A stretch of 64,000 nucleotides of DNA from a virus (lineage: Duplodnaviria > Caudoviricetes), in IMG/VR virus record IMGVR_UViG_3300025018_000148, positions 7,094 through 71,093 of that record; one strand, written 5' to 3'. Of the stretch, positions 3,773-63,732 are shown one piece after another (within the stretch, counting starts at the first letter, position 1; every line of letters begins with the position of its first letter). The notes under the pieces are model-generated. The model worked only from the letters and a program-made list of their open reading frames with translations, was not told where the DNA came from and did no database searches. A program made the translations under genes and the position numbers.

Positions 3773-4570
3773 ATGGATAGACTCGAAATACCCGCAACTC
3801 TTTCGTGGGAAGAAATCTCGCCCAAGCTTCCGGAGTGGGCGGTGAAGTTCAACGATGAGCAGAGAGCCTTGGTCCCCGAGATCCTTGACGCCTTGGTCGC
3901 GAATTGGGTCCGGGACGACTGGTTCACCACCCTCGATTTCCGCTATCTCCCGGACACGGTGGGGGACGGAGGGACACCCTACGGCAATGTCGTCCAGTCG
4001 GTTCTCGAATCCCCCCTCGTTTGGTATCACCCGGACGGGGTTCTCAAACAGCCTTTGCTCGACATCGTGGTGGAGAATACCAGATACTTGTTCTCCAACT
4101 TCATTCAGCGGCAGGCTCGCAAAGCCCCGTATTCTTTCAACACCGATTCCTTGAACACCATGCTGCGACTGCCGGGGTGGAAGGAGCTTGTGGATTTCCC
4201 CCACGAGGACCGATACCCGGAGCAGCACGGGAAGGAGCCCATTGCCCCCTACATTCTTAAAGACGAGGGCGAGAGGGTCAAGTTGGTGCCTTCCGACCGG
4301 TATGAAGCCGCCCGTTGGTGGGATCGGATTGTCGTGCAACCGGGGTGGCTGTCCGTGGAAGTCCCTCGGCCCCTGTCTTCTGCCTACTGCTACGGGTCGC
4401 ACCCACAAACCCCCGAGAACTGGCGTGGGGAATGGAAGTGGTTGAACGCCCGCGAGACGATTGGGGAGACAACCTACATTCGTTTCGACGAAGGCTACTT
4501 CCGGGGGCGCTTCGTCGTTCGGACGGACTTCATGGAATTCAAGATCCGGCGCTTCCGGACCCGCATTTAA
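3773..4570 (+). CDS. Degenerate, internally deleted paralogue of the major capsid protein
   Basis: Collinear matches to MCP 31135-32304: PDTVG/PDEMG, QSVLESPLV/QTALESPPV, IVVENT/ILTQNT, YEAA/YETA, GEWKWLN/GDWKWLN, GYFRGRF/GYFRGIF. Confidence 0.8.
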   Translation: MDRLEIPATLSWEEISPKLPEWAVKFNDEQRALVPEILDALVANWVRDDWFTTLDFRYLPDTVGDGGTPYGNVVQSVLESPLVWYHPDGVLKQPLLDIVVENTRYLFSNFIQRQARKAPYSFNTDSLNTMLRLPGWKELVDFPHEDRYPEQHGKEPIAPYILKDEGERVKLVPSDRYEAARWWDRIVVQPGWLSVEVPRPLSSAYCYGSHPQTPENWRGEWKWLNARETIGETTYIRFDEGYFRGRFVVRTDFMEFKIRRFRTRI

Positions 4571-26562: not shown

Positions 26563-26805
26563 TCATTTGTTCGCGGAAAAGTCGATCATTCTCGTGGCAC
26601 GAACCTGTCCGATAAAGGACCAGATGATGCCGATAGCGGTCACGATCTCGTCCCAGTTCTCGAACACCATTGCGACAAGCCCTGAGACGGCTTCCGTGTT
26701 GACTTCCCACCCGAACAGAGCGGAAAGAATGTTGGCGATAATGCCGATGGCGGCAATCAGGAGTCCCTGAATCCGGCGACTTTCAAGTGGTCTTTTGGTA
26801 TCCAT
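26563..26805 (-). CDS. Holin-like protein
   Basis: MDTKRPLESRRIQGLLIAAIGII...VTAIGIIWSFIGQVRAT pattern with 2-3 TM segments; A/C leader before ATG 26805. Confidence 0.65.
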   Translation of the reverse strand: MDTKRPLESRRIQGLLIAAIGIIANILSALFGWEVNTEAVSGLVAMVFENWDEIVTAIGIIWSFIGQVRATRMIDFSANK

Positions 26806-26847
26806 AGTAGTTTGGGGTTGTTGCGTATAATTGATCGAGTCTTTCAA

Positions 26848-31134: not shown

Positions 31135-32304
31135 TTAAGCCACGGGGTTGTGGTTTTCGTCGATGAAGACGTTCTGGACGTTGGCCCGCTTGTGGCGAAG
31201 CACATATCCGAACTCCGGATGGATCGGTTCAGACCCGGACGAGAAGATCCCACGGAAGTAGCCCCAAGACTTGTCGGGGTTTTCGACCCGATCTGGGATG
31301 TTGAGCCACTTCCAATCCCCCATGTATTTCTGAGCCTCGAACTCGGTCTCGCCACCGGGAGTGGTGATCGAAGCCGGGATGAGAGAACGAAACACCGAGC
31401 GGAGGAAGATGATGGTGTCCTCGTAGGTAGCGGTCTCGTAATCCGGATTCTCGACAGCCCTCGACCCCTTGGTCGTGGCGACAAGAATCAGCGGCGGGAC
31501 CTCGACCCACACACCCCCGGTGAAGTTCCAGCGGGGCGGGAAGTCGTCGATGAGATGGTAGAACCCGTTGTAGGCGCGGCTGACACCGAGAGGAGCAAGA
31601 AGCTCGGGAGCACGAGAAGTGTTCCGAATATCCTCACGGATCTCGTAGTCCTTGCGGACGATAGCCTTGTCCGTTTCGGGCGACATGATCGCGACGAACT
31701 GCGGGCGACCATCGACGTAATCGACAGAGCCGTCATCACGAGCCGCACCCTGACGAGTGAGCTTGAGGTGGAACCGTTCGAGGATGTCGCCGGTCAGACG
31801 ACCAGTGGGTTCCGTGGTCGGGAAGGAGCCACTGGCTTCCGGGAAACCGTCAGCGCAGATGACCTTGTGCTCCGAGAGGCGCACATACTCGCTCCGGTGA
31901 CGCTCCTGCCAAAGCCAACCGGTGTTCTGGGTCAGGATGCTGTAACAGTTCTCAAGCTGCTTGCGCCGCTTGAACGTGAAACGCAGGTCGTTGATACAAA
32001 CCGGAGGCGATTCGAGAGCCGTCTGCTGGAGGTTGTAGTTCCGAAGGGTTTGAGCGAATTCGATCTGTTCGGCAGTAGGCACACAGTTGGAGCCAGTGCC
32101 ATCGTTGAAGGTGACCGTTTGCCACGTCGGAGAGTTCGCAGGGATCGTGCGCTCGTAAGTGAGCACCGAAATCTGCTCGCCCATCTCGTCGGGCCAAGTC
32201 CCCTTCTCGACAAGATCGATCCAGACAGTAGTGTGAAGCGTGCGGTCGTGGATGTCCTCGGAGATCCGTCCCGATTCGCTTACCAAAAGATCGTTGATGT
32301 CCAT
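31135..32304 (-). CDS. Major capsid protein
   Basis: 389 aa; downstream of portal and scaffold; own long leader, candidate promoter and terminator. Confidence 0.8.
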   Translation of the reverse strand: MDINDLLVSESGRISEDIHDRTLHTTVWIDLVEKGTWPDEMGEQISVLTYERTIPANSPTWQTVTFNDGTGSNCVPTAEQIEFAQTLRNYNLQQTALESPPVCINDLRFTFKRRKQLENCYSILTQNTGWLWQERHRSEYVRLSEHKVICADGFPEASGSFPTTEPTGRLTGDILERFHLKLTRQGAARDDGSVDYVDGRPQFVAIMSPETDKAIVRKDYEIREDIRNTSRAPELLAPLGVSRAYNGFYHLIDDFPPRWNFTGGVWVEVPPLILVATTKGSRAVENPDYETATYEDTIIFLRSVFRSLIPASITTPGGETEFEAQKYMGDWKWLNIPDRVENPDKSWGYFRGIFSSGSEPIHPEFGYVLRHKRANVQNVFIDENHNPVA

Positions 32305-33383: not shown

Positions 33384-34667
33384 TTACCCGAAGGTGATGT
33401 CACCGCTCGCGAATCTTTCGTCCACACTTTCGAGGAACGTCGATCCCGGTTTGTAGTCCTTGTCGGACTTGCCGGGGGCGGGGTCTTTCCCGCTCACTCC
33501 GACTCCCTTGCCCTTGCCGGGGGCGGAACCAGTCAGACGAGCAACGGACTTCTCAAGCTCTCCGATGCGCTTGGTGTAGCCCGCACGCTCCGCAGCGTGC
33601 TTCTTGACCAGAGCCGGGACGAGATGAGTAGCGAAGGCTGCGAAAGCCTGCGTTCCAAGAGCGGCAATCGCGAGGTTGGCCCCCCGACCTTTCTTGAAGA
33701 CCTCGGCGAATTCGGGAAGCACCTCTCCGTCTTCCCCAACAATGCCGGGGATCTTGGTGGTGATGTTCTTCCAGACGGTGTCGGCGGCAGCTTCGAGAGC
33801 CTGTTGGTCTTCCTTGCTGCGGGCACCTTTTTCGGCGAGTCCCTTCCGGTCGAGATCCTTCTTCATCTCGGCGGCATTCTTCCGGAACTCGGCATCCTTC
33901 TCGAAGATCTCGTCCGCACGACTCACGAGACCATAGAGCTTGTGCTTGAGGAAGTCCGGCATGTCGTCGGTGATTTCGGACAACTTCTTGGCACGAGCGG
34001 ACAGGTTGGTCTCCGCCAGAGCCTCGAAAATCTCGTTCTCCAGTTCGGAGTCCCCGTCAGAGATCGCTTTGACCTCCTTCTCAACACGAGCCATGGGAGC
34101 ACGAACCTCCTGTTGATACTGCTCGGAGTTCGTGACCGACACCGCAGCGATGATCTTGTCCTGCTCAGCGAGTTTGGCTTCGAGTTCCTTGACCCTTTCG
34201 GAGGAGACCTCGGGGGCGCTCTCCCGCAATGTCTTGATCTCGGCCTTGAGAGACAGGTTCTCCTTCTCCGCAGCACGAAGCTCCTTCCAACGGGCTTCCG
34301 ACTTGGCTCCCTGCTTCTTGACTTCTTCGGGGACTTCCTCCTCGTCATCGTCGTCCTCGGTGGATTCCTCCTTCGAAGCTTTCTTCTTCTCGGGTTCCTC
34401 CTCTTCGAGCTTGGTCAGGTCGTCGAGGGACGGTTCGACAATCTCCTCGATCTCTTCGACCTCCTCGGATTTCGACGGGGTCACCTTGGCAGGAGTCTCT
34501 TTGCCGGGAGTCTCCTCGGATTTCGACGGGGTCACCTTGGCAGGAGTCTCTTTGCCGGGAGTCTCCTTGCCGGGGATTTCTTCGTGTTCGGGGGCGTCAA
34601 GGACCGTGCCACCTTCCGCAATGCGGGCGTCCAGCAGATCCATGAGTCCTAAGCGTTGTGTGGACAT
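33384..34667 (-). CDS. Capsid scaffolding protein
   Basis: Acidic disordered N-terminus, long coiled coil, between portal and MCP. Confidence 0.7.
   Translation of the reverse strand: MSTQRLGLMDLLDARIAEGGTVLDAPEHEEIPGKETPGKETPAKVTPSKSEETPGKETPAKVTPSKSEEVEEIEEIVEPSLDDLTKLEEEEPEKKKASKEESTEDDDDEEEVPEEVKKQGAKSEARWKELRAAEKENLSLKAEIKTLRESAPEVSSERVKELEAKLAEQDKIIAAVSVTNSEQYQQEVRAPMARVEKEVKAISDGDSELENEIFEALAETNLSARAKKLSEITDDMPDFLKHKLYGLVSRADEIFEKDAEFRKNAAEMKKDLDRKGLAEKGARSKEDQQALEAAADTVWKNITTKIPGIVGEDGEVLPEFAEVFKKGRGANLAIAALGTQAFAAFATHLVPALVKKHAAERAGYTKRIGELEKSVARLTGSAPGKGKGVGVSGKDPAPGKSDKDYKPGSTFLESVDERFASGDITFG
34461..34562 (-). repeat. Perfect 51-bp tandem duplication in the scaffold gene
   Basis: Two identical units 34461-34511 and 34512-34562 (TPGKETPAKVTPSKSEE). 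Confidence 0.95.
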
Positions 34668-44995: not shown

Positions 44996-45847
44996 TTACT
45001 CCTCCTCACCCGACGACGTAGCCAACGAGAAGTCGTCGTCAGCCTGCTCCGCGAGGAAGTCGTAGGTCTCCTTGTCGGTGACCACGCCAACGAGCTTCGA
45101 GGTAGGAACATACCACGTATTGTCGTCGTTCGACTTCTTGACGGACTTGAGCGTCCAGAGACCGGTGAAGAGCCCCCCGGCGCTCTGGAGCTTGCCCATG
45201 CCGTGCGTGATGATCGCCTTGGCGAAGGCATTGTAGGCACCCCCGGCGACAGTGAAGATGACACGCGCCCAATGAGCGCCATCATATTCGAGCGGGAACC
45301 GATGAAGCTCCGACTTGTCGAGCTTGGCGGGAGCCTGAATCAGCAGGACGACGTGAGCGAGCGGCTGGTAATACCGCTCCTCCTCGACCGCTTCCTCGGA
45401 CCACTTGGTCGTGCCGCCCGCAGCAGCCACCTCCGCCTTCGTGGAGACCACGTTGGGAGTCTCGCCCCCTTGGTAATCGACCTTCTGCTGGTAGAGCTTG
45501 GTGATGTCGAGGACGACAAAGTTGAGCTTGTCGTCCCGCGTGGCGAGCACGAGTTCCTTCTCCAGCACGAAGGAACCGATGGGCATGTCCTCCTCCGTGC
45601 AGAGCTTGGAGGCGGGGTTGACGATGTTGAGACGGGGGAGAATGACATCGTTCTCGTCGATCTCGCCATGGACACCCTTTGCGGCGGAGGCGGGGCGGGA
45701 GAGTTCCTGCTTCTGCTGTTTCGCCGGGGGGTTCTTCGCCGAAGCGGACTCGGACGCTTTCGCGGGAGCCTTCTTTGCCGGAGCCGCCTTTTTGGTTGCG
45801 GCTTTCTTCGGTTTGTCGTCCTCGTCATAGAAGTTGAGCTTGCCCAT
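44996..45847 (-). CDS. Putative ssDNA-binding protein with basic PAKK-rich N-terminus
   Basis: DVILPRLNIVNP motif, beta-rich core, acidic C-tail DDDFS...EEE; between nuclease and polymerase. Confidence 0.5.
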   Translation of the reverse strand: MGKLNFYDEDDKPKKAATKKAAPAKKAPAKASESASAKNPPAKQQKQELSRPASAAKGVHGEIDENDVILPRLNIVNPASKLCTEEDMPIGSFVLEKELVLATRDDKLNFVVLDITKLYQQKVDYQGGETPNVVSTKAEVAAAGGTTKWSEEAVEEERYYQPLAHVVLLIQAPAKLDKSELHRFPLEYDGAHWARVIFTVAGGAYNAFAKAIITHGMGKLQSAGGLFTGLWTLKSVKKSNDDNTWYVPTSKLVGVVTDKETYDFLAEQADDDFSLATSSGEEE

Positions 45848-45875: not shown

Positions 45876-48539
45876 TTATTTGTTTTGTTGTCTGTCAATC
45901 TGAAGGAATTGGATCGTGTGATCCCCTCCAGAGAGAATATCATTCTCGATCAACTCTTCGAGAAAAGCTTCTAAATTGTCTTCTTTGCTGCCATGCGGAG
46001 CAGCCTCACGAATCTTGTCTTCGAGAGCCGTGATATGCACGGACCCCACACACTCGATGAAATCCGGCAAGGTGACTCCATACCCCTCCGCCACATTGAA
46101 CGCGGCAACGGCATTGGAGACAACCCGCTTCGTCTTCTTGGTCATCTTCTTGAATCCGGGGATGTCCAGCCCTTCGTCGAAGGCAAGCTCGTTCGCCTTC
46201 GCCTTGACGGATTCGATCCATGCTTCCAGCACCGGCACCATCATCCGGGCTTTGCCGATCTCCTCGGGGGTGTCCATGAGGGAGGCGTCGAGATACTCCG
46301 GGAGGACGAGCCCGTCCTCCATACGATCCCGATAGATGAGGAGAACCTTGTCGTTGAGAGCCTGACAAGTCTCCTTGCGACCGCACCACTCACAGACGTG
46401 GGGAGTCGGATTGAATTCCTTCCCGGCAAGCTTCTTTGCCTTGGAGATGACGAGGTTGATGCGGAGATGGAGATCGTGCATCGTCCCCGAAGATTCCTGC
46501 CCCTCCTCCTCCCACCACTCGGGAATCTCGACATTCTCGTCCCGCAGGAATGCGGCCATGGTGATTGTGTTCTGCCGGGGGACGAGGAAATAGAAATACA
46601 CGATCTCCACTTTGGGGAACCTCTGGAAGACCCCCAAAGTATACGCCCACGCTTGACTGTTGATCTCCGCATCATCGACCGGCGTCCAACCGCACTTGTA
46701 GTCGTGGGCGACCGCAACATTGCCGTAGACGGCAAGACGATCCATGGTGCCGAAGGTCTGGTGATTCGAGAGATCGATCTGAAGGCGGATCTCGTTGAAC
46801 TTCTCACCCTCCGAGACTCCGAACATCTCCTCGTTGGAGTAGACCTTGTTCATCATCTGCCACGCGAGCATCTGCTCGCCCTCGTCCTGAAGGGACTCGG
46901 GGTCCTCCCGTTCGAGAGCATGGTGAATCCGGGTCCCCGCGACAGTCATCTCGTGCAACTCCGCATCCTCCTTCTCCTTCCGGTTCTCGTAGGAAGGGCA
47001 CGTCTCAAAATACTTGAGGGAGGAAGGTCCGTATTCGGCGTGCGCCGGTTGCGCGTCCAGCAATTCGAACTCAGGTTCGAGAACCTCTTCCTGCTTTTTG
47101 ACGGGAGCTTTCTTGGAGGGGCTCTTTTTCGCAGGGGTCTTTTTGGTCGGCGCGGCTTGCTTGGCGGGGGCTTTCTTCGGGGGCATAGCGTTCTCGTTCG
47201 GTTGGTGCAGAGTCTCCAGATTCTTTAGCTTGCGATCCAAGGCTTCTCGAACTTGCTCTTCGACGGTGCCTGCCGCAAACAGAATGCGTTGAAGAGTATC
47301 AGTCTTTGCTCCCGCTCTGTCAACTCTTCCTAGCACTTGTTTGATAGTCTTCTCATTCCAAGCCGGAGAAATGAGTGCCAACCGGGGAGCATTGCCGATT
47401 TTATCGTGCAAGGAGATCGCGACTCCCCCCGCCTCGACGTTCAAGATTATGATGTTGTCCCGTCCGGACTGGAAAGCTTCGATGGCGGATTGCCGCTCTT
47501 CGGGGGACTGCTGGACCTTGGTGTCCGGGTCGGTCCCCCACACAATCGGACAATTGCCTCCGAGCCGGGAGTTGAGAGCCTTGACACTGGCGTTGAAATT
47601 CAAGAATATGGGGACGTGCCACCCTTCGGCAATCGCCTCGGTCACCATCTCGGCCATGAGTGGAATCTTGAGCAACTCGACTCTCTGCCGCGCACGGAGC
47701 ATGGCGATCAGAATCTCCGCCTCCGGAGACACCTTGTCCTCCGCTTCTTTGGCTTCGAGTTCCTCGATCTCCGCTTCCATCTCCGCATAGATCCTCTCAA
47801 TCTCCCCGTCGTCACCGAAGTCCACCGGGGTTGTGATGATATGACCGTTGGAGAAGAACTCCCGGAGTTCGTGCCGGTGGACCTTGTAGCCATGACCGGG
47901 GTAAAGCTCCCGGTTCAATTGCTGGAGAATCTCCTCCGCCTTCTCTTCGTTCTGGGTGAACTGCCATCTCTTCCACCGGTCCTTCCGGCACCCGTGGCGC
48001 TTCGCCCATGCGACATAGTCGTAATACCGGTGGAGCCCCAGCACATACCCCACGGTCTTCAATTCAGTGGGGTCCTTGGCGACCGTCGCAGACACGAGCA
48101 TGTTCATGATGTCCGTGTTATCCCCCGCATACTTGAGCATTCTCGAACTGAGCGACTTGGCTTCCTTGCACTTGTGGACCTCGTCCCAGATGATGAGTCC
48201 GATCTGCTCGTTCCAGACGAAATCCCTTTGCTCCGGGTCCCCCTTCTTGGGAGGATCTCCCACCCAAGCTCCGCAGATGGTGTTGCCCCGGCGAATCAAA
48301 TCATAGTTGATGATCCCAAGATACTCTACCCCCTGCTCATTGAACGTGGCTTCCCAGTCGGGGATGACCGACAGGGGGCAGATCACGAGAGGACGCCTGC
48401 CCACATTGCGGGAGATCTCAACACTCATGAGCGTCTTCCCCGTCCCCGTGTCGGAGGCATTCAACGCAGACCCTTTCTCCAGAAGGAGGTGGGTGAGGTG
48501 ATCGATGGCGACCTGCTGCGGTGGATAGGGAGTGAGCAT
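45876..48539 (-). CDS. SNF2-like SF2 helicase fused to a PD-(D/E)XK (DUF2800/Cas4-like) exonuclease
   Basis: DTGTGKT, WDEVH, SAT and QVLGRVDR, then GPSSL..CP, GTRIH, GTMD..DYKCG, CEWC..C. Confidence 0.85.
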   Translation of the reverse strand: MLTPYPPQQVAIDHLTHLLLEKGSALNASDTGTGKTLMSVEISRNVGRRPLVICPLSVIPDWEATFNEQGVEYLGIINYDLIRRGNTICGAWVGDPPKKGDPEQRDFVWNEQIGLIIWDEVHKCKEAKSLSSRMLKYAGDNTDIMNMLVSATVAKDPTELKTVGYVLGLHRYYDYVAWAKRHGCRKDRWKRWQFTQNEEKAEEILQQLNRELYPGHGYKVHRHELREFFSNGHIITTPVDFGDDGEIERIYAEMEAEIEELEAKEAEDKVSPEAEILIAMLRARQRVELLKIPLMAEMVTEAIAEGWHVPIFLNFNASVKALNSRLGGNCPIVWGTDPDTKVQQSPEERQSAIEAFQSGRDNIIILNVEAGGVAISLHDKIGNAPRLALISPAWNEKTIKQVLGRVDRAGAKTDTLQRILFAAGTVEEQVREALDRKLKNLETLHQPNENAMPPKKAPAKQAAPTKKTPAKKSPSKKAPVKKQEEVLEPEFELLDAQPAHAEYGPSSLKYFETCPSYENRKEKEDAELHEMTVAGTRIHHALEREDPESLQDEGEQMLAWQMMNKVYSNEEMFGVSEGEKFNEIRLQIDLSNHQTFGTMDRLAVYGNVAVAHDYKCGWTPVDDAEINSQAWAYTLGVFQRFPKVEIVYFYFLVPRQNTITMAAFLRDENVEIPEWWEEEGQESSGTMHDLHLRINLVISKAKKLAGKEFNPTPHVCEWCGRKETCQALNDKVLLIYRDRMEDGLVLPEYLDASLMDTPEEIGKARMMVPVLEAWIESVKAKANELAFDEGLDIPGFKKMTKKTKRVVSNAVAAFNVAEGYGVTLPDFIECVGSVHITALEDKIREAAPHGSKEDNLEAFLEELIENDILSGGDHTIQFLQIDRQQNK

Positions 48540-48557: not shown

Positions 48558-48863
48558 TCATTTGCGAGCGATTTTGAACGACAAACGATTTTGAGGATCA
48601 CGAATGTCCGACAAATCCGGCTCCCGGTGTATCCGACCTTCCTGCGCTTTGAAGCTCCCCGCCAATCGGAGATACTCTTCCCGGTGTCGGGCTTCGTAGA
48701 CCGTCCTCGTGCTGGTCACCAGAAGCCGGTAGATCCTGTCGAGTTCCTCGGAAGTCACATACCCCGGAACACGACCCGGAGAGGGCAGCACGGGGGTCTC
48801 CACGACCTGCCGACACCCGGCAACAAAAGCGGCAACGCCGATGAGGAAGCGACGACGGTTCAT
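48558..48863 (-). CDS. Tat-signal lipoprotein-like peptide carrying an MCP-derived segment
   Basis: MNRRRFLIGVAAFVAGC (RRxFL + lipobox); LDRIYRLLVTSTRTVYEARHREEYLRLA is 11/28 identical, ungapped, to MCP 117-144. Confidence 0.75.
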   Translation of the reverse strand: MNRRRFLIGVAAFVAGCRQVVETPVLPSPGRVPGYVTSEELDRIYRLLVTSTRTVYEARHREEYLRLAGSFKAQEGRIHREPDLSDIRDPQNRLSFKIARK

Positions 48864-49225
48864 GACTTGGGCTGTTGCTTCTCGATTCGCTGGATCTCCC
48901 GGTCAAGATACCTCCGGGCCTTCTTCAGATCTTCGAGAGGGTTTCCTTTTTCGTCGGCACGCCAAATATACTTGATGGCGTTTCCGAGGCAAAAGTTCAT
49001 GTGCTCGGTGATCTGAATACACTCCACTCCGGAAGGGTGCTTCCGATAGTGGGGAGGCAGGTTGACCAAGTCAACTTCCGGAAGTTGGTCCGGAGCTTCG
49101 GAGGCATCCCCCGAGACCATCCACGTCCACTTCCCATGCCCTTCGCAGGCGGGATCATTGCACTGCCCCATAACATTCGTGGGACCTTGGCACCGGGGAC
49201 AGAGATAGTCAGATGCGCTTCCCAT
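48860..49225 (-). CDS. DUF3310 (SaV-like) protein with N-terminal CxxC
   Basis: VNLPPHYRKHPSGVECIQI...FCLGNAIKYIWRA..K..EDLKKARRYL. Confidence 0.85.
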   Translation of the reverse strand: MGSASDYLCPRCQGPTNVMGQCNDPACEGHGKWTWMVSGDASEAPDQLPEVDLVNLPPHYRKHPSGVECIQITEHMNFCLGNAIKYIWRADEKGNPLEDLKKARRYLDREIQRIEKQQPKS

Positions 49226-50294
49226 GGAGAATACTCTTGAGGTTGTGGGCAACGATCTCCGGGGAGAGCGAGTTGAGGACGGAGCACTGAAGCTCCACGG
49301 CACACTTCTTTCCGGGAGGGAAAGGATTGCCTCCCACAGGAAGGTAGTTGCAGAACCGGCAGGGTCCCATGCCTTTCATGGCTTGGACCGTCTTCTGGTC
49401 CCCTTGGGTGAGCGAAGGATCGAAAGCTCCGGAGAGCACGAGAGCGGGGATGTCGAGGGCTCCGGCGACGTGCATGAAGAGGGAGTCGGGGACAAGCATC
49501 ACGTCACAGGTCTTGGCAACCGCGACCGACATTCGAACGGACAACCCCTTCTCGGAAAGATTGACCAGATTGTCCGCTTTCCCCCACGCAACATCAATGT
49601 CACCGGGAGCCCCGAACAGGTAAATCTCGTCGGCGACTTTGTTCCGGAGGAGATGCGCCATGACCTCCACCGTCCGTTTGCGATGATAGGTCCGGTTCTC
49701 CGCCGATGCCCGCACTTGCACCCCGACCCGGATCTTCCCCGACTCCTTGGGGAAGCTGTCCTCCGCCCACGCCATCTCGTCGGCGGTGAGCACGTAGAGA
49801 ACCTTGCGGTCGTCGAGACGGTCGAGTCCACAAGCCCGAGCGAACCGGGTCGCGTAGGTGTAACCGGCAAGCTCCTTGTCAGGATGCTCCAAGACCCCTT
49901 CGAGGAAGAAGTAGTGGTTGCCCGGCTGCTGGTAGTCCTCAAACTTTACGGGGTATCCAACCGTGTCCACAACCCCATTGAGGATGGGTGCATACCGGGG
50001 GTGGCACACCACCTTGACCGCAACCCCCGGATACCTGAGTCTCAAAGCTTTCACGGTGGGGGTGAGAAGGAGCAGGTCCCCGAAAGATCCGGGGCGGACG
50101 AGATATATTGTATCCCCGGAAAGGATGTTCGAAGGGAGAACTCCCGAAACGACTTTCCTCTGGAGGTTCTCCACCTCTCCCACCGCATTCTGGGTGAGGG
50201 CTTGCGCCAACGGCATGGGTCCGAGGATATACTCTCCGGAGTCCACTCCCAGCCGGGAGAACCACCATGCTTGATTGCAATTCACTTTATACAT
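49209..50294 (-). CDS. GT9-family (heptosyltransferase-like) glycosyltransferase
   Basis: GSFGDLLLLTPTVKALR, VPDSLFMHVAGALDIPALVL, PCRFC...C. Confidence 0.85.
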   Translation of the reverse strand: MYKVNCNQAWWFSRLGVDSGEYILGPMPLAQALTQNAVGEVENLQRKVVSGVLPSNILSGDTIYLVRPGSFGDLLLLTPTVKALRLRYPGVAVKVVCHPRYAPILNGVVDTVGYPVKFEDYQQPGNHYFFLEGVLEHPDKELAGYTYATRFARACGLDRLDDRKVLYVLTADEMAWAEDSFPKESGKIRVGVQVRASAENRTYHRKRTVEVMAHLLRNKVADEIYLFGAPGDIDVAWGKADNLVNLSEKGLSVRMSVAVAKTCDVMLVPDSLFMHVAGALDIPALVLSGAFDPSLTQGDQKTVQAMKGMGPCRFCNYLPVGGNPFPPGKKCAVELQCSVLNSLSPEIVAHNLKSILHGKRI

Positions 50295-50320
50295 ACTTCA
50301 GATACTTGGGGTTAAACTCG

Positions 50321-51160
50321 TCAGCTTCCGACAACATTTCCGTCCTCCGTCCAACGGAACTCGCCGACAGGGAGGGGCTTCCCACACTGACAGCAATAAG
50401 TGAGCCCGTAGAATGACGGATCACTTGCATAGGTCTCGGCGATCACCGGAGCAATGTTCGTTGTCGCCCCGCAGGTCGTGTGAACGTAGGAGCGACGAAG
50501 GGGGCGAACAAACCCCCGCTTCGCCAGTTCTTCCTTCGAGAGGACGAGAAACTTCACGCTCTGCCCGTCTGCCCTGCGCTCATGGAGTCGGGGATCGTCG
50601 GGGTCGGTAGTGAACGGGGGTTCGACCGGGGGCTTCTCCCACGTCATCCCACCATAAGGAGGGTCGAGTTTCGTGGGGGCGAACTTGTTGAGCCATTTTC
50701 GCGCTCCCCGAAAGGCCGCAGTGGTCTCGACTCCGGTCGTCCCGATCATGGAGATAAGCTCCGCAGCTTCCGCCACGGCTCTTTCCAAGGTGTGCCCGGT
50801 ATTGCACTGGACCTGCGTGCTGCGGTCGTCGTAGCACGTCTTCATGAGTCCGTCCTTCTCGTGGGTGACCTCGAACCGCTGCCCGAAGAGATGCTCCTCA
50901 CACCAGTCTTGGATGCACTCAACAATCTGAGCCTTGGAAACCCCTTGATTCCACTCCAGACACTCGGGGGAAACCCGAGCCGTGAAGATCTTGATGTCGT
51001 GGGTGTTCTCGCGCAAGATACGATGCACATCGCGGACCATCTCGACAACCGGGTCCCCGATGTGAAGAGGGTGCTTCCACCCATCATAATGCGCCAAAGT
51101 TCCGTCGAGATCGAAACCGATCCAACCCCTCTTCTTGATTCCGTGCGTATCAGTGCCCAT
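50321..51160 (-). CDS. HAD-superfamily phosphatase-like domain fused to a C-terminal Zn-binding domain
   Basis: IGFDLDGTLA motif I, IFTAR, YDD; C-terminal HTTCG...YCCQC. Confidence 0.75.
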   Translation of the reverse strand: MGTDTHGIKKRGWIGFDLDGTLAHYDGWKHPLHIGDPVVEMVRDVHRILRENTHDIKIFTARVSPECLEWNQGVSKAQIVECIQDWCEEHLFGQRFEVTHEKDGLMKTCYDDRSTQVQCNTGHTLERAVAEAAELISMIGTTGVETTAAFRGARKWLNKFAPTKLDPPYGGMTWEKPPVEPPFTTDPDDPRLHERRADGQSVKFLVLSKEELAKRGFVRPLRRSYVHTTCGATTNIAPVIAETYASDPSFYGLTYCCQCGKPLPVGEFRWTEDGNVVGS

Positions 51161-51401
51161 GCTTCTTTGCTCCTCGTAAAATTTGCTTCACTTCGGGGTC
51201 AGACATGACCCGGAGATGGATGCCATCTTCAAGTTCCTGCACGACCATGTTCTGCCCCTCATGACTGGCTGTCGCGGCGAAGACATCCTCGGCAGAGAGG
51301 ACGATGTGCTTCAACCCCTGCTTGTGCATGAGGATCATCAAAAGCTTGTGCCACTGCCCTGAAAAGGCTTCGGCGACTGCGGGGTCAGGATTTATACTCA
51401 T
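51150..51401 (-). CDS. Hypothetical protein
   Basis: 83 aa from ATG 51401, overlapping both neighbours. Confidence 0.6.
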   Translation of the reverse strand: MSINPDPAVAEAFSGQWHKLLMILMHKQGLKHIVLSAEDVFAATASHEGQNMVVQELEDGIHLRVMSDPEVKQILRGAKKHGH

Positions 51402-51618
51402 ATTGTGGGAGGTGTTGGCTGAGAGCGATCCAAGGAGACTCCCCGAGGACCTTTGTGTGAATGTCATGAGAGATGTTGTGAGCCTCGGCAATCAGGATCT
51501 CGTCAATGGTCCAACGACGGGAGGCTTGCGCCACCACCGGGGAAGATTCGAGAATGGGACGGACCCCCGCCACAAAAGCGAGAGCCATCCCGAGGAAAGC
51601 TCTTCGAGAGGACCTCAT
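51385..51618 (-). CDS. Tat-signal peptide carrying an MCP N-terminus-derived segment
   Basis: MRSSRRAFLGMALAFVAGV...VAQA; TIDEILIAEAHNISHDIHTKVLGESPWIAL is 12/30 identical, ungapped, to MCP 2-31; ATGA-coupled. Confidence 0.75.
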   Translation of the reverse strand: MRSSRRAFLGMALAFVAGVRPILESSPVVAQASRRWTIDEILIAEAHNISHDIHTKVLGESPWIALSQHLPQYEYKS

Positions 51619-54977: not shown

Positions 54978-55556
54978 TCAATCAAAGGACATCTTCGTGC
55001 CATTGCCGGTCGAGGAATCCGGGGCAGGCGTCTCCTTGGAAGCCTCCTGCTTCACGGGGGCAGCTTTCTTGGCGGGAGCCGCCTTGGATGACTCCTTCTT
55101 CACCGGAACAGCTTTCTTGGCCGGAGCAGCTTTCTTCACCGGAGCCTTGGGAGTCTCCTTCTTCGCAAGGGCGGCTTTCTTGGCCGGAGCCTGCTTCTTG
55201 GCGAGCTTCGCATCAACCGGCTTCATGAGAGCCTCGGACACCTTGTCGGTGCCATCAAAGAGCGCGTCGAGGAAAGCCCGCCCCTTGGCAGTGACCTCGA
55301 AGACGATGGTGCGATCCTCGCCTTTCTTGGCCTTGATAAGACCGAGGTCCTTGAGCTTCGTGGTCACCCCGGCGACCGAGGCGTCGTGAAACCCGAGATC
55401 CCGGCACAACTGCCCGAGATACGCGGGGTTCCCCGCAAGGTTGCGCTCGTAGATCGCGATAAAGATCTGAGCGGTGGTGAGTCCGACCGGACCCGAGGTC
55501 CTCGTGAGGAAGTCACGAAGGGCGGAAAGGAGTTGCTTCACAGGGGCAAGTTTCAT
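54978..55556 (-). CDS. MarR-like winged-HTH regulator (repressor candidate) with histone-H1-like tail
   Basis: LTTAQIFIAI...LGQLCRDLG..ASVAGVTTKLKDLGLI...DRTIVFEVTAKGR; PAKK-rich C-terminus. Confidence 0.75.
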   Translation of the reverse strand: MKLAPVKQLLSALRDFLTRTSGPVGLTTAQIFIAIYERNLAGNPAYLGQLCRDLGFHDASVAGVTTKLKDLGLIKAKKGEDRTIVFEVTAKGRAFLDALFDGTDKVSEALMKPVDAKLAKKQAPAKKAALAKKETPKAPVKKAAPAKKAVPVKKESSKAAPAKKAAPVKQEASKETPAPDSSTGNGTKMSFD

Positions 55557-61461: not shown

Positions 61462-61878
61462 ATGAAATTACCCGATCAGAACTGGAACCTTCCCGGCGAG
61501 GCGGAAGCCCTCGGCTTCGCGACGTTCAATAACGTCCCGCACCTCTGCGTTCACCTCCCGGATCAGAACTGCACGCTCACCGTCCGCACCTCGGATGGCA
61601 GGTTGGCGACTCTCGCCTTCTTGCAATACCGGCCCGGTGGTCCCCCGCAATGCGTCGATGTGGTCGCTCACAAGCGAGCGGACCACGAGGACAACATCCC
61701 TGAGCAGGATGTCAGGGTCTTCGGCAGGTCTCGCAAGTGTGGAGGTCTGACCGCTTATCACCACGACCCCAGTCAACCGGAGAAGGACGAAAGAGTCGTC
61801 TTCCCCAGCATCACCACGGTCATCTTCCCCGAGCCCGATCCCGAGTGGACCCCGGACAAGGAGCGGATTGCCTTGTGA
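61462..61878 (+). CDS. Early hypothetical protein
   Basis: Leader motif; stop abuts the repeat. Confidence 0.8.
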   Translation: MKLPDQNWNLPGEAEALGFATFNNVPHLCVHLPDQNCTLTVRTSDGRLATLAFLQYRPGGPPQCVDVVAHKRADHEDNIPEQDVRVFGRSRKCGGLTAYHHDPSQPEKDERVVFPSITTVIFPEPDPEWTPDKERIAL

Positions 61879-62011
61879 TTTCTCCCGTCAGGTCATCCCG
61901 GCAATTGCTGGGGTGCTCTGCGGGGAGCAATCCAAACGGACCTCCGATCAAAGCTGAAACGCGAAGCTCTGACGAGCAACGCGAAGTCTAACCTAACAAA
62001 ACAATAATACT

Positions 62012-62656
62012 ATGAGCAAACTACTTGATATATTCCTCGGTTCCCCGACTCACGTCGAGTTCCGGCAATCCCAGTTTCAGGAACTCTGCATCGAGGACCC
62101 CGAGAGGGCATTCTGGATTGCGGACGCCGCTGAGCAAGGGGAGGACGGCTCGACTCACGCGGGACACCTCGCCGACTGGCGGGAGTGGACTCCGGCATGG
62201 GTCGAGACCTACGTGGAAGGGCTCGAACGTCAGTTCGTCGCCAGCAACCCGGAACTGGCAGGCTTCACCACGGAAGCGTTCGAAGTCCTGCAAGAACTCC
62301 TCCTCGAACAAATCGGCGAGGAGATCGACGAACTCGAAGCTTGGCACGAGGCAAACGGCTCGCTCCACGAGGGGCTTTCGTCCCAAGTGCCGACTCCCGA
62401 CAAGGGGTTCGCAGAGTTCGGATGCGATGTCGCTGAGCACTTCTACCGTGAACTCAAAATCGGGGACCGTGGGACGTTCTACGAACCCGACTCGGAAGAG
62501 AACCTCGACTGCTACGTTTTTGACGTGACCGACGAGGAACGGCAGGGACTCGGCATCCGGTGGCAGAAAGCCTACCTCTTCATCGACTCCGCCCCTCAGA
62601 CGCCTCTCGTGACTGCGCAATCCTTCGCCGTCTCGGAAGAGGACCCGGACAATTGA
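62012..62656 (+). CDS. Early acidic hypothetical protein
   Basis: Leader motif; strongly D/E-rich. Confidence 0.8.
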   Translation: MSKLLDIFLGSPTHVEFRQSQFQELCIEDPERAFWIADAAEQGEDGSTHAGHLADWREWTPAWVETYVEGLERQFVASNPELAGFTTEAFEVLQELLLEQIGEEIDELEAWHEANGSLHEGLSSQVPTPDKGFAEFGCDVAEHFYRELKIGDRGTFYEPDSEENLDCYVFDVTDEERQGLGIRWQKAYLFIDSAPQTPLVTAQSFAVSEEDPDN

Positions 62657-62751
62657 CCGGTGATTCCCGACGCTCCATCCCAGACACCTCCGGGGTGGAG
62701 CGAGGGGAGTTTCCACTCCACTTCGATCAAACCTAACAAAACAATACTACT

Positions 62752-63051
62752 ATGAGCACGACATCCGATTCCAACGTCACGCCCTCCGTCGAGGACCGTC
62801 TCTCCGAGACGATCGCCAAGGCGATCTCCTATGCCACGAGAAGGGGTTCCACGGTGCTGGCAACGAAGCCCTATTCGAACCACCCTGACGATCACTACTT
62901 CTGCGTGGTGCTTCACAGGAACGTTCAAGGGGACTACGTGGTCCACACCTTCAACTCCCAGTTCGAGGGGCTCGACAACGGGGATTACAATGATTCCTTG
63001 GGGAATGCCTTGCGCGATTTCCAACGACGTGGCAGAATTCACGATCTCTGA
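62752..63051 (+). CDS. Early hypothetical protein (VHxFN...G...G.Y...L..A..DF family)
   Basis: Leader motif; recognisable small phage protein pattern. Confidence 0.8.
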   Translation: MSTTSDSNVTPSVEDRLSETIAKAISYATRRGSTVLATKPYSNHPDDHYFCVVLHRNVQGDYVVHTFNSQFEGLDNGDYNDSLGNALRDFQRRGRIHDL

Positions 63052-63150
63052 TCGTTCCCGTCAGGTCATCCCGGCAATTGCTGGGGTGCTCTGCGGGGAG
63101 CAATCCAAACGGACCTCCGATTCAAACTAACCTAACAAAACAATACTACT

Positions 63151-63732
63151 ATGAACGCAACATTCACTATTCTGGCAACCCTCTCTGGCGCGAGCTACCT
63201 CGTGCATCTCGACCAGTTCGATGGCTGGGACAACCTTGTCGAAAACCTGAAGCATGATGCGGAGGACGACCTCCGTGAAGCGTGGCAGGACCGGCAGGAC
63301 GAGGACTCCGAGGAGGAGTTCGACATCGACGAGGAGTTCGACATCGATCTCTTCGACCTCAAGGTCGATTGTGTGGACGACAAAAACTACGATCTCGGTT
63401 TCACCGGGACCAAGGTCACCGAGTCTTCCGATCTCTGGGAGTTCCTCGGGCTCGACGACGAGGAAGCGGATCTCGTCCGCTACTACTGCGAGGCGCACGG
63501 CTACGACTTCGATGACGGCACCCTGAGCAATGCGAGGGGCTGTTATGCGGGCACCTTCGATGACGAGGCTTCCTTCGCGGAGCACCTCGCCAACGAGACC
63601 GGGGCAGTCGATTTCAACCTCGCTTCGTGGATTGTGATCGACGGGCAGGCGGCATGGGATCGAACCCTCTGCTACGAATACAACTCGGTCGGCACGGACG
63701 ACGGCAAGGTTGCCATCTTCAACAACTGTTGA
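63151..63732 (+). CDS. ardA: ArdA-like antirestriction (DNA-mimic) protein
   Basis: Very acidic; C-terminus YAGTFDDEASFAEHLANETG...WIVIDGQAAWDR..C.EY.......AIF matches the ArdA C-terminal pattern. Confidence 0.7.
   Translation: MNATFTILATLSGASYLVHLDQFDGWDNLVENLKHDAEDDLREAWQDRQDEDSEEEFDIDEEFDIDLFDLKVDCVDDKNYDLGFTGTKVTESSDLWEFLGLDDEEADLVRYYCEAHGYDFDDGTLSNARGCYAGTFDDEASFAEHLANETGAVDFNLASWIVIDGQAAWDRTLCYEYNSVGTDDGKVAIFNNC

Follow-up and report, generated by a model that had tools for sequence, protein, structure and literature searches.

The window analysed here (bases 7094-71093, that is, 64,000 nucleotides, of the 71,093-bp IMG/VR virus record IMGVR_UViG_3300025018_000148, rated complete by CheckV) carries a major capsid protein (MCP) gene and, outside its head module, three small open reading frames (ORFs A, B and C) whose products match pieces of that protein. 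These three are lineage-specific accessory genes that descend from old partial copies of the HK97-fold MCP gene of this N4-like phage. At the level of motifs, B and C also begin with leaders of the type used in twin-arginine translocation (Tat), and the pairing of such a leader with a piece of capsid protein is not a product of chance, as it recurs in a related genome, G032, and in P0126, an orthologue of C. An earlier note, made from the letters of the window, had proposed a set of capsid mimics here, and its claims are taken up below where the results bear on them. The features concerned are as follows, with lengths in amino acids (aa).

31135..32304, minus strand: MCP, 389 aa, parent of the fragments (AlphaFold2, Foldseek and context)
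3773..4570, plus strand: ORF A, 265 aa, a leaderless, diverged partial MCP copy (profile search, hhalign)
4142..4522, plus strand: MCP-like segment of A, residues 124-250, aligned to MCP 229-357 (BLASTP, hhalign)
48558..48863, minus strand: ORF B, 101 aa, twin-arginine-type leader with lipobox, plus a copy of the spine helix (sequence, profile search)
48813..48863, minus strand: leader of B, MNRRRFLIGVAAFVAG followed by C, with an RRxFL motif, an h-region and a VAGC lipobox, then R (sequence motifs)
48654..48755, minus strand: spine-helix-like segment of B, residues 37-70, aligned to MCP 113-146 (BLASTP, hhalign)
51385..51618, minus strand: ORF C, 77 aa, twin-arginine-type leader plus a copy of the N-arm (sequence, profile search)
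51523..51618, minus strand: leader of C, MRSSRRAFLGMALAFVAGVRPILESSPVVAQA, with SRRxFL, an h-region, a basic residue and AxA (sequence motifs)
51415..51513, minus strand: N-arm-like segment of C, residues 36-68, aligned to MCP 1-33 (BLASTP, hhalign)

Similarity of ORFs A, B and C to the major capsid protein

When compared directly with the MCP by BLASTP, A aligned over residues 157-247 (MCP 269-354, E 1e-4), B over residues 39-68 (MCP 115-144, E 3e-6) and C over MCP 3-33 (E 6e-6). Because these pairwise values lie near the level of about one chance match in an all-against-all comparison of the 547 window ORFs, profiles were used. A hidden Markov model (HMM) built from 121 MCP homologues and run on all 547 window ORFs of at least 40 aa retrieved A (5e-9), C (1e-5) and B (1.9e-5), with the next ORF at E=4.3, and a six-frame search of the phage genome with an alignment of 56 MCP sequences (A1) found exactly A, B, C and the MCP. 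Profile-profile alignment by hhalign, the check that the earlier note had called for, matched all three to the MCP profile (A 95.7%, E 9e-9 over 121 columns; B 92.8%, 3.9e-7; C 92.7%, 4.3e-7). As an empirical null, 17 related genomes were retrieved whole and the HMM was run with its filters off on every stop-to-stop frame of 30 aa or more, 19,881 in all. Apart from the MCP genes, E-values below 0.09 were obtained only for A, B, C and one frame of G032 (3.1e-4). The proposal that the three ORFs are MCP-like at these positions is thereby confirmed, far above chance, and their description as real, capsid-derived, non-structural genes is supported.

The stretches of the MCP that these genes had been said to cover hold for B, which carries a spine-helix segment, and for C, which carries an N-arm segment. 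A had been described as the whole protein minus two loops; it matches only over A124-250 (MCP 229-357), a segment that includes the motif G-[DE]-W-K-W-L-N ... G-Y-F-R-G (the GxWKWLN...GYFRG hairpin). The N-terminal 146 residues of A scored no better than shuffled versions against the HMM (rank 428 of 2000 shuffles) and are thus not significantly MCP-like, so the shuffled-control test went against this part of the claim; under Smith-Waterman alignment the real score was reached by 17 of 300 shuffles, which is marginal. Weak collinear blocks are present in this part (QSVLESPLV in A for QTALESPPV in the MCP, also an 80% DNA block, and IVVENT for ILTQNT). Judged from its alignments, ORF A is a copy of the C-terminal half of the MCP and does not qualify as a full-length HK97-fold paralogue; single-sequence AlphaFold2 prediction of A gave an unusable model with a predicted local distance difference test score (pLDDT) of 39. 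Divergence at the DNA level, also claimed earlier, applies to B and C, for which blastn found no match, and not fully to A, where three short collinear in-frame DNA blocks persist (among the in-frame blocks, A655-675 with MCP 985-1005 and A721-750 with MCP 1042-1070).

Relatives of the three proteins are few. ORF A is a near-orphan, with one 98%-identical relative among 5.8 billion proteins in a word-index search and nothing usable in the ESM Atlas, while B is a singleton among the same 5.8 billion. An HMMER scan of 1.84 billion representatives yielded a sole orthologue of C, P0126 (82 aa, 44% identity, E 5.6e-6), which is located on a 936-bp contig. P0126 keeps the leader (MKRRNFFLG...), and its N-arm-like part is the best conserved relative to C, with 17 of 32 residues identical; a two-sequence profile of C and P0126 matched the MCP profile at 93.8% (E 1.8e-7). 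No relatives were retrieved from JGI metagenome contigs scanned with the C/P0126 alignment, nor from viral contigs in pattern scans with A, B, C, the SNF2 helicase and P0126, and tblastn against GenBank phages returned no match for the MCP, B or C. With regard to conserved positions, the B segment retains the family-invariant residues R135, R137, E139 and R142, and the C segment retains five of six near-invariant family residues (L7, E10, I14, I18 and W28). Complex prediction of the MCP with the mature part of C gave a score of 0.01, which carries no weight either way.

The parent capsid protein

The AlphaFold2 model of the MCP, made from A1, has a pLDDT of 77 and a predicted TM-score of 0.75, with N-arm helices at residues 3-31 and a long spine helix at residues 113-143. 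The top Foldseek matches in the PDB are N4-like capsids (Pseudomonas phage DEV 9bgn, N4 9e99 and 9lbz, and Shigella phages Moo19 and B2) at E-values of about 1e-10 and probability 1.0, followed by other HK97-fold capsids. In total 328 PDB chains match the model at E<=1e-3, and all matches listed are capsid or encapsulin shells. The product of 31135-32304 is, on this model, an HK97-fold MCP with a fold closest to that of N4-like capsids. The HK97-fold assignment draws on fold and context: the MCP has no Pfam or PHROG match, none of its more than 324 homologues carries a Pfam domain, and solved capsids were not matched by sequence when the A1 profile was compared with PDB sequences. As no solved capsid was matched by sequence, the label N4-like rests on fold and genome layout. 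One homologue, P0003, is 76% identical and lies on a 78-kb contig.

Two variations of the MCP gene were seen among relatives. In relatives G020, G026, G028, G029 (L115-L118), G073, G077, G078 and G082 the MCP profile match is split (about residues 1-265 and 265-381) within one open frame of 500-540 aa, so that these MCPs carry an inserted domain of about 120-150 aa where residue ~265 of the window MCP would lie. In the MCP genes of G007, G030, G031, G033 and G034 (L092-L094) the profile match crosses one in-frame TAA, which could be a case of stop read-through at the C-terminal end of the match.

Twin-arginine-type leaders and their pairing with capsid pieces

B and C both carry the twin-arginine N-terminal consensus S/T-R-R-x-F-L-K in recognizable form (N-R-R-R-F-L-I in B and S-R-R-A-F-L-G in C), and comparable motifs open P0126 (K-R-R-N-F-F-L) and an ORF of G032 (I-R-R-A-F-I-A). 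The h-regions are rich in Gly and Ala and are followed by R (CRQ in B, GVRP in C, GRRLR in G032, ELR in P0126). In B and C, h-region, basic "Sec-avoidance" residue and cleavage site are all in place, the last being AxA in C and a lipobox in B. The lipobox V-A-G-C of B, at residues 14-17, fits the lipoprotein pattern [LVI][ASTVI][GAS]C; C has V-A-G-V at the place of the lipobox and is thus not a lipoprotein. The earlier claim of Tat signals stands at the motif level (SRRAFL, RRRFL, h-region, basic residue, AxA or VAGC) and is not borne out by the Pfam and NCBIfam models. We therefore describe the leaders of B and C as putative Tat-type export signals, a designation that refers to their motifs. 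Every full-length MCP of the family that was examined lacks a Tat-like leader.

A strict leader filter, which asked for RRx[FLIVM][LIVMFA], a hydrophobic stretch free of charges and a Met no more than 20 residues away, was passed by 4 of the 19,881 frames, and three of these four are B, C and the MCP-fragment ORF of G032 (hypergeometric P 1e-11). This filter was designed after B and C had been seen, so the independent and fair test is G032 alone. There, the only frame among 18,607 foreign frames that passed the strict filter, or one of 12 that passed a relaxed one, is also the only MCP-fragment frame, a coincidence with a probability of about 5e-5 to 6e-4.

G032 (43 kb, MCP 49% identical) holds this extra HMM match in a 109-aa ORF that starts MIRRAFIASLLGLVAFGRR and whose whole mature part aligns to MCP 278-366. 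The mature part is 35.6% identical to P0026 over 90 aa and ends ...W.N..D..NPDG..G.FR. The ATG of the ORF overlaps the upstream stop codon (ATGA), with GGGAGGG 7 nt upstream, and the ORF lies in the replication module, directly upstream of a RuvC-like gene. The search of related genomes for RRxFL ORFs with MCP-like segments, which the earlier note had suggested, produced this ORF, a recurrence within the present MCP family.

A weaker case was encountered in G027 (the record behind L080), where a leaderless 104-aa ORF (G027:C1:12446-12760, minus strand) lies directly downstream of the giant virion-protein gene. It has two weak collinear matches to MCP motifs (PLCQICTNDIRR for SPxICVNDLRF and IQWRNIRSEANPLGTIGQF for FKWLNIxDRxxNPDGTIGYF). 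At E 0.095 per genome it is too weak to count as a further fragment gene, though it may make G027 the third genome in which a small gene derives from the capsid protein.

Age, gene status and accessory nature

Each of A, B and C matches 104-121 of the 121 MCP sequences (A matches 120 of the 120 homologues tested), and the window's own MCP ranks only 84th for A, 46th for B and 77th for C. With their own MCP in the middle of the ranking, the three are not recent copies. A common origin in a single broken second MCP copy was rejected since B, in its longest alignments (MCP 100-177), overlaps the weak collinear blocks of A. The idea that the MCP has been escaping its own mimics was also rejected: the ranks are mid-range, and a column-by-column comparison of the window's MCP, the family consensus and C shows no such pattern.

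Codon-aligned identity to the MCP at positions 1, 2 and 3 is 15, 21 and 10 of 30 for B and 13, 20 and 11 of 31 for C. Third positions are thus at random level (saturated) and second positions are about 67% identical, the pattern that long constraint at the protein level would give, with the qualification that discovery by protein similarity biases it. Codon-usage log-odds are best in the annotated frame of the six for A, B and C, with A scoring 0.32 in frame against 0.34 for the MCP. In variant strains found on hydrocarbon metagenome contigs, B is covered at 95-99% identity and is intact, without indels; the five changes listed comprise three synonymous and two non-synonymous ones (K97N and G69E), four of the five at third positions. 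Contigs from four DNA runs cover B, not C.

The ATG of B overlaps the stop codon of the DUF3310 gene (ATGA), and B ends 19 nt before the SNF2/DUF2800 helicase gene. The ATG of C overlaps the DUF1353 stop in the same way (ATGA), with a Shine-Dalgarno-like GGGAGGG motif 9 nt upstream; gene callers differ on the length of C (77 aa in one, 67 aa in another). ORF A lies directly upstream of a PIF1-type helicase gene. Taken with the coupling and Shine-Dalgarno motif, the best frame, the codon-position decay, the intact B of the variants and the conserved orthologue of C, all three look like real genes.

Comparison with G005 (MCP 61% identical) shows where B and C entered. The order there is RuvC-like gene, 117-aa gene, DUF1353, DUF3310, helicase, and neighbouring genes overlap or stand 10 nt apart. 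B is absent from the DUF3310/helicase junction of G005 and is inserted at that junction in the window, and at the DUF1353/DUF3310 junction the window has C and three other genes in addition. B and C are thus accessory, translationally coupled insertions into conserved junctions of the replication module. The block that came with C (49209-51491, minus strand) contains a GT9 (heptosyltransferase-like) gene, a 279-aa gene and a gene of about 113 aa, the latter two without a family match; a glycosyltransferase of lipopolysaccharide type in this block hints at a Gram-negative host.

Fragment genes are sporadic in the family. With the MCP-family HMM, 16 of the 18 fully scanned genomes had no fragment at E<0.01, nor did 62 further records, and searches of 30 and then 50 related records gave nothing more. 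A distance of 44 kb separates A from B, while B and C were inserted separately, at sites 2.5 kb from each other. The notion of a dedicated set, or system, does not survive these observations: the three MCP-derived genes are scattered and share a design rather than a location.

Other features of the genome

The window has a G+C content of 57%. Near-identical DNA was obtained from an aquifer metagenome, with variant strains present in hydrocarbon metagenomes and in further ones from aquifers. The genome of this uncultured phage encodes a 3293-aa virion protein and a 752-aa ORF without a family match, which we take to be a putative portal protein from its size and position. Its replication module contains the PIF1 helicase, SNF2/DUF2800 helicase, DUF1353 and DUF3310 genes.

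KKAPAKK-type stretches rich in K, A and P are common to four otherwise unrelated window proteins (BLASTP E 3.6e-5 to 2e-3) and look like low-complexity, histone-H1-like tails or linkers. They are encoded at:

44996-45847: KKAPAKK-type protein (BLASTP)
45876-48539: KKAPAKK-type protein, residues ~444-504 (BLASTP)
54978-55556: KKAPAKK-type protein (BLASTP)
33384-34667: KKAPAKK-type protein (BLASTP), the putative scaffold protein

At 61737-63257, short ORFs about 1.2 kb apart share stretches of 55-89% identity (E down to 3e-8), which indicates that the DNA is directly repeated in this part of the early region, close to the window's right end. An ORF of 80-94 aa at 26563-26847, minus strand (MDTKRPLESRRIQGLLIAAIGIIANILSALFGW...), has two hydrophobic stretches and passed the relaxed leader filter; it is without MCP similarity, and its product has the look of a small, holin-like membrane protein and not of a Tat substrate.

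Discussion

The explanation that we favour, tentatively and at less than an even chance, is that these genes encode stand-ins for the MCP that would compete for a host factor binding it. A, B and C would be expressed together with the replication genes, probably no later than the MCP, and the leader would bring B and C to the Tat translocon and the cytoplasmic membrane, where B would be lipid-anchored and C either cleaved or signal-anchored. The capsid-derived segment would then serve as a non-assembling substitute for a conserved MCP surface in competition for an MCP binder. Our guess at this binder is some host factor with an MCP-sensing or MCP-binding role, either kept at the membrane or taken out together with the leader. 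Such a factor would meet the mimic rather than the assembling capsid protein, and A may have an equivalent role in the cytoplasm. The fragments fit the consensus of the family and retain its invariant residues, and the fact that conserved MCP elements (N-arm, spine helix, C-terminal hairpin) were taken as cargo again and again points to mimicry of an MCP surface. The MCP triggers several defence systems, and MCP triggers share a need for oligomerisation, according to a 2026 review that lists MCP sensors and describes no decoy gene for them (PMC13728456). Full-text literature searches likewise retrieved no paper on leader-fused capsid fragments or MCP decoys.

Several points weigh against this explanation. 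Tat export leads to the periplasm, away from a cytoplasmic sensor, so that a hitchhiker or a membrane-retention step has to be assumed. The Tat models PF10518 and TIGR01409 did not match B or C (Pfam at E<=1, NCBIfam at E<=10); filters often remove short models, and the call of a Tat signal is therefore weakened but not excluded. With the resident MCP only mid-rank, the fragments are not tuned to it. Codon adaptation is weak in B (0.06) and C (0.12) against 0.37 +/- 0.13 for long genes, although the Pfam-confirmed DUF3310 gene scores a similar 0.065. Selection on A and B, which are without orthologues, is barely measurable, and the enrichment of invariant residues in the fragments is partly an ascertainment effect of profile searching.

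More broadly, these genes might belong to an undescribed accessory class whose Tat-type leaders carry short imitations of a phage's own capsid surfaces to its host's membrane or periplasm, where they would neutralise a capsid-recognising factor; we regard this as conceivable and rather doubtful. The target could be an immune sensor of the host that is retained at the Tat translocon or pulled out through it, or alternatively the ejected internal proteins of a superinfecting relative, which normally dock on the inner face of the capsid.

Relatives also figure in a different and unlikely explanation, in which the genes are weapons against related phages: dominant-negative capsid pieces, or periplasmic mimics of the inner surface, would disturb capsid assembly or the ejection of genome and proteins in co-infecting or superinfecting relatives, and so bring about superinfection exclusion. 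Precedents of a kind exist, as prophages use Tab proteins to stop superinfecting phages from assembling tails, and the satellite proteins CpmB and Ccm redirect capsid assembly. The sporadic, accessory distribution of the genes suits such a role, as do the copying of elements conserved across the family and the fact that the fragments are nearer to the family consensus than to their own MCP (own-MCP ranks 84, 46 and 77 of 121, and 87 of 133 for that of G032). Mid-range ranks are, however, expected from random old divergence, the column-by-column check gave no sign that the MCP had changed where C keeps the consensus, and export takes B and C out of the cytoplasm, where capsids are assembled. 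It is about as improbable that MCP pieces merely supplied helical or beta-strand raw sequence for new small envelope proteins, such as receptor-blocking lipoproteins like T5 Llp or Cor, with the likeness to the MCP being history and not function. The lipobox of B, the signal-peptidase-like AxA site of C and the small size and fast evolution of these orphans all agree with that, and the protein-language-model neighbours of B in the ESM Atlas include small Tat-signal proteins (score 0.81-0.85, sub-threshold and at lead level only). Random raw material is not, however, expected to come repeatedly from one gene: the pairing of a leader with an MCP piece, a different one each time, came about or was kept on at least three occasions (B; C with P0126; G032), A is a fourth capsid-derived gene, and what is best conserved between C and P0126 is precisely the MCP-like part.

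Two further explanations appear very unlikely. The genes could help the phage's own head assembly, for instance by tethering the MCP to the membrane or, as chaperone-like regulators, by keeping it back for as long as scaffold and portal are not in place. In HK97-type procapsids (80alpha, P22) the N-arm and spine helix face the scaffold, and in 80alpha they jointly form the binding site for the scaffold C-terminus; a membrane leader could localise assembly. The fragments are absent from nearly all relatives with the same MCP family, and their place outside the head module argues against core assembly factors. The genes could also be relics of illegitimate recombination, or spurious ORFs with a chance similarity, as might be read from the orphan status of A and B and the weak codon adaptation of B and C. 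Both are hard to reconcile with E-values that lie 4-8 orders of magnitude from the null across 19,881 frames, with intact frames tightly coupled to their neighbours, codon-position-specific decay, a conserved orthologue of C and the association of fragment and leader.

Among known systems, the leaders resemble Tat signal peptides and lipoproteins of the PF10518 and TIGR01409 kind in their [S/x]-R-R-x-F-[LI] motif, Gly/Ala-rich h-region, basic residue and AxA (C) or VAGC (B) site. Unlike Tat substrates, B and C carry as cargo a 40-70-residue copy of a capsid element and not a cofactor enzyme, and no Tat HMM matches them. T4, with gp23 and gp24, similarly has extra MCP-descended genes in one phage genome; gp24 has the full-length fold and is conserved, essential and encoded in the head module, whereas A, B and C are sporadic fragments in the replication module, two of them with export leaders. 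The nearest published mimic logic is that of SaPI CpmB, PICI Ccm and P4 Sid, small or capsid-like proteins that compete for a coat-protein site, but these are satellite-encoded and cytoplasmic, and none is known to be a piece of its carrier's own MCP joined to a leader. The Gol peptide of T4 gp23 with Lit, CapRel and other MCP sensors illustrate that a short MCP segment can be the target of host defence; Gol is part of the MCP itself, while A, B and C are separate genes. T5 Llp, Cor and prophage Tab are likewise small accessory phage proteins, Llp and Cor being exported and lipid-anchored and Tab blocking the assembly of rival virions, but they are not known to derive from their phage's own capsid protein. 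Neither Pfam, PHROG nor NCBIfam gave a match for A, B or C, and hence no relation to CpmB, Ccm, Sid, Llp, Cor or Tab was found.

The MCP is a trigger of many bacterial defence systems, and a phage-encoded capsid mimic is not described in the literature searched. If the fragments are functional mimics, they would represent a new strategy of counter-defence or of competition between phages, would show which MCP surfaces are recognised inside the cell, and would imply that lytic phages put the Tat pathway to an unexpected use. Since the design, a leader joined to an MCP fragment, recurs, the idea is directly testable in cultivable relatives. Whatever their function, these genes show clearly how pieces of a core structural gene have given rise to new genes in a phage.

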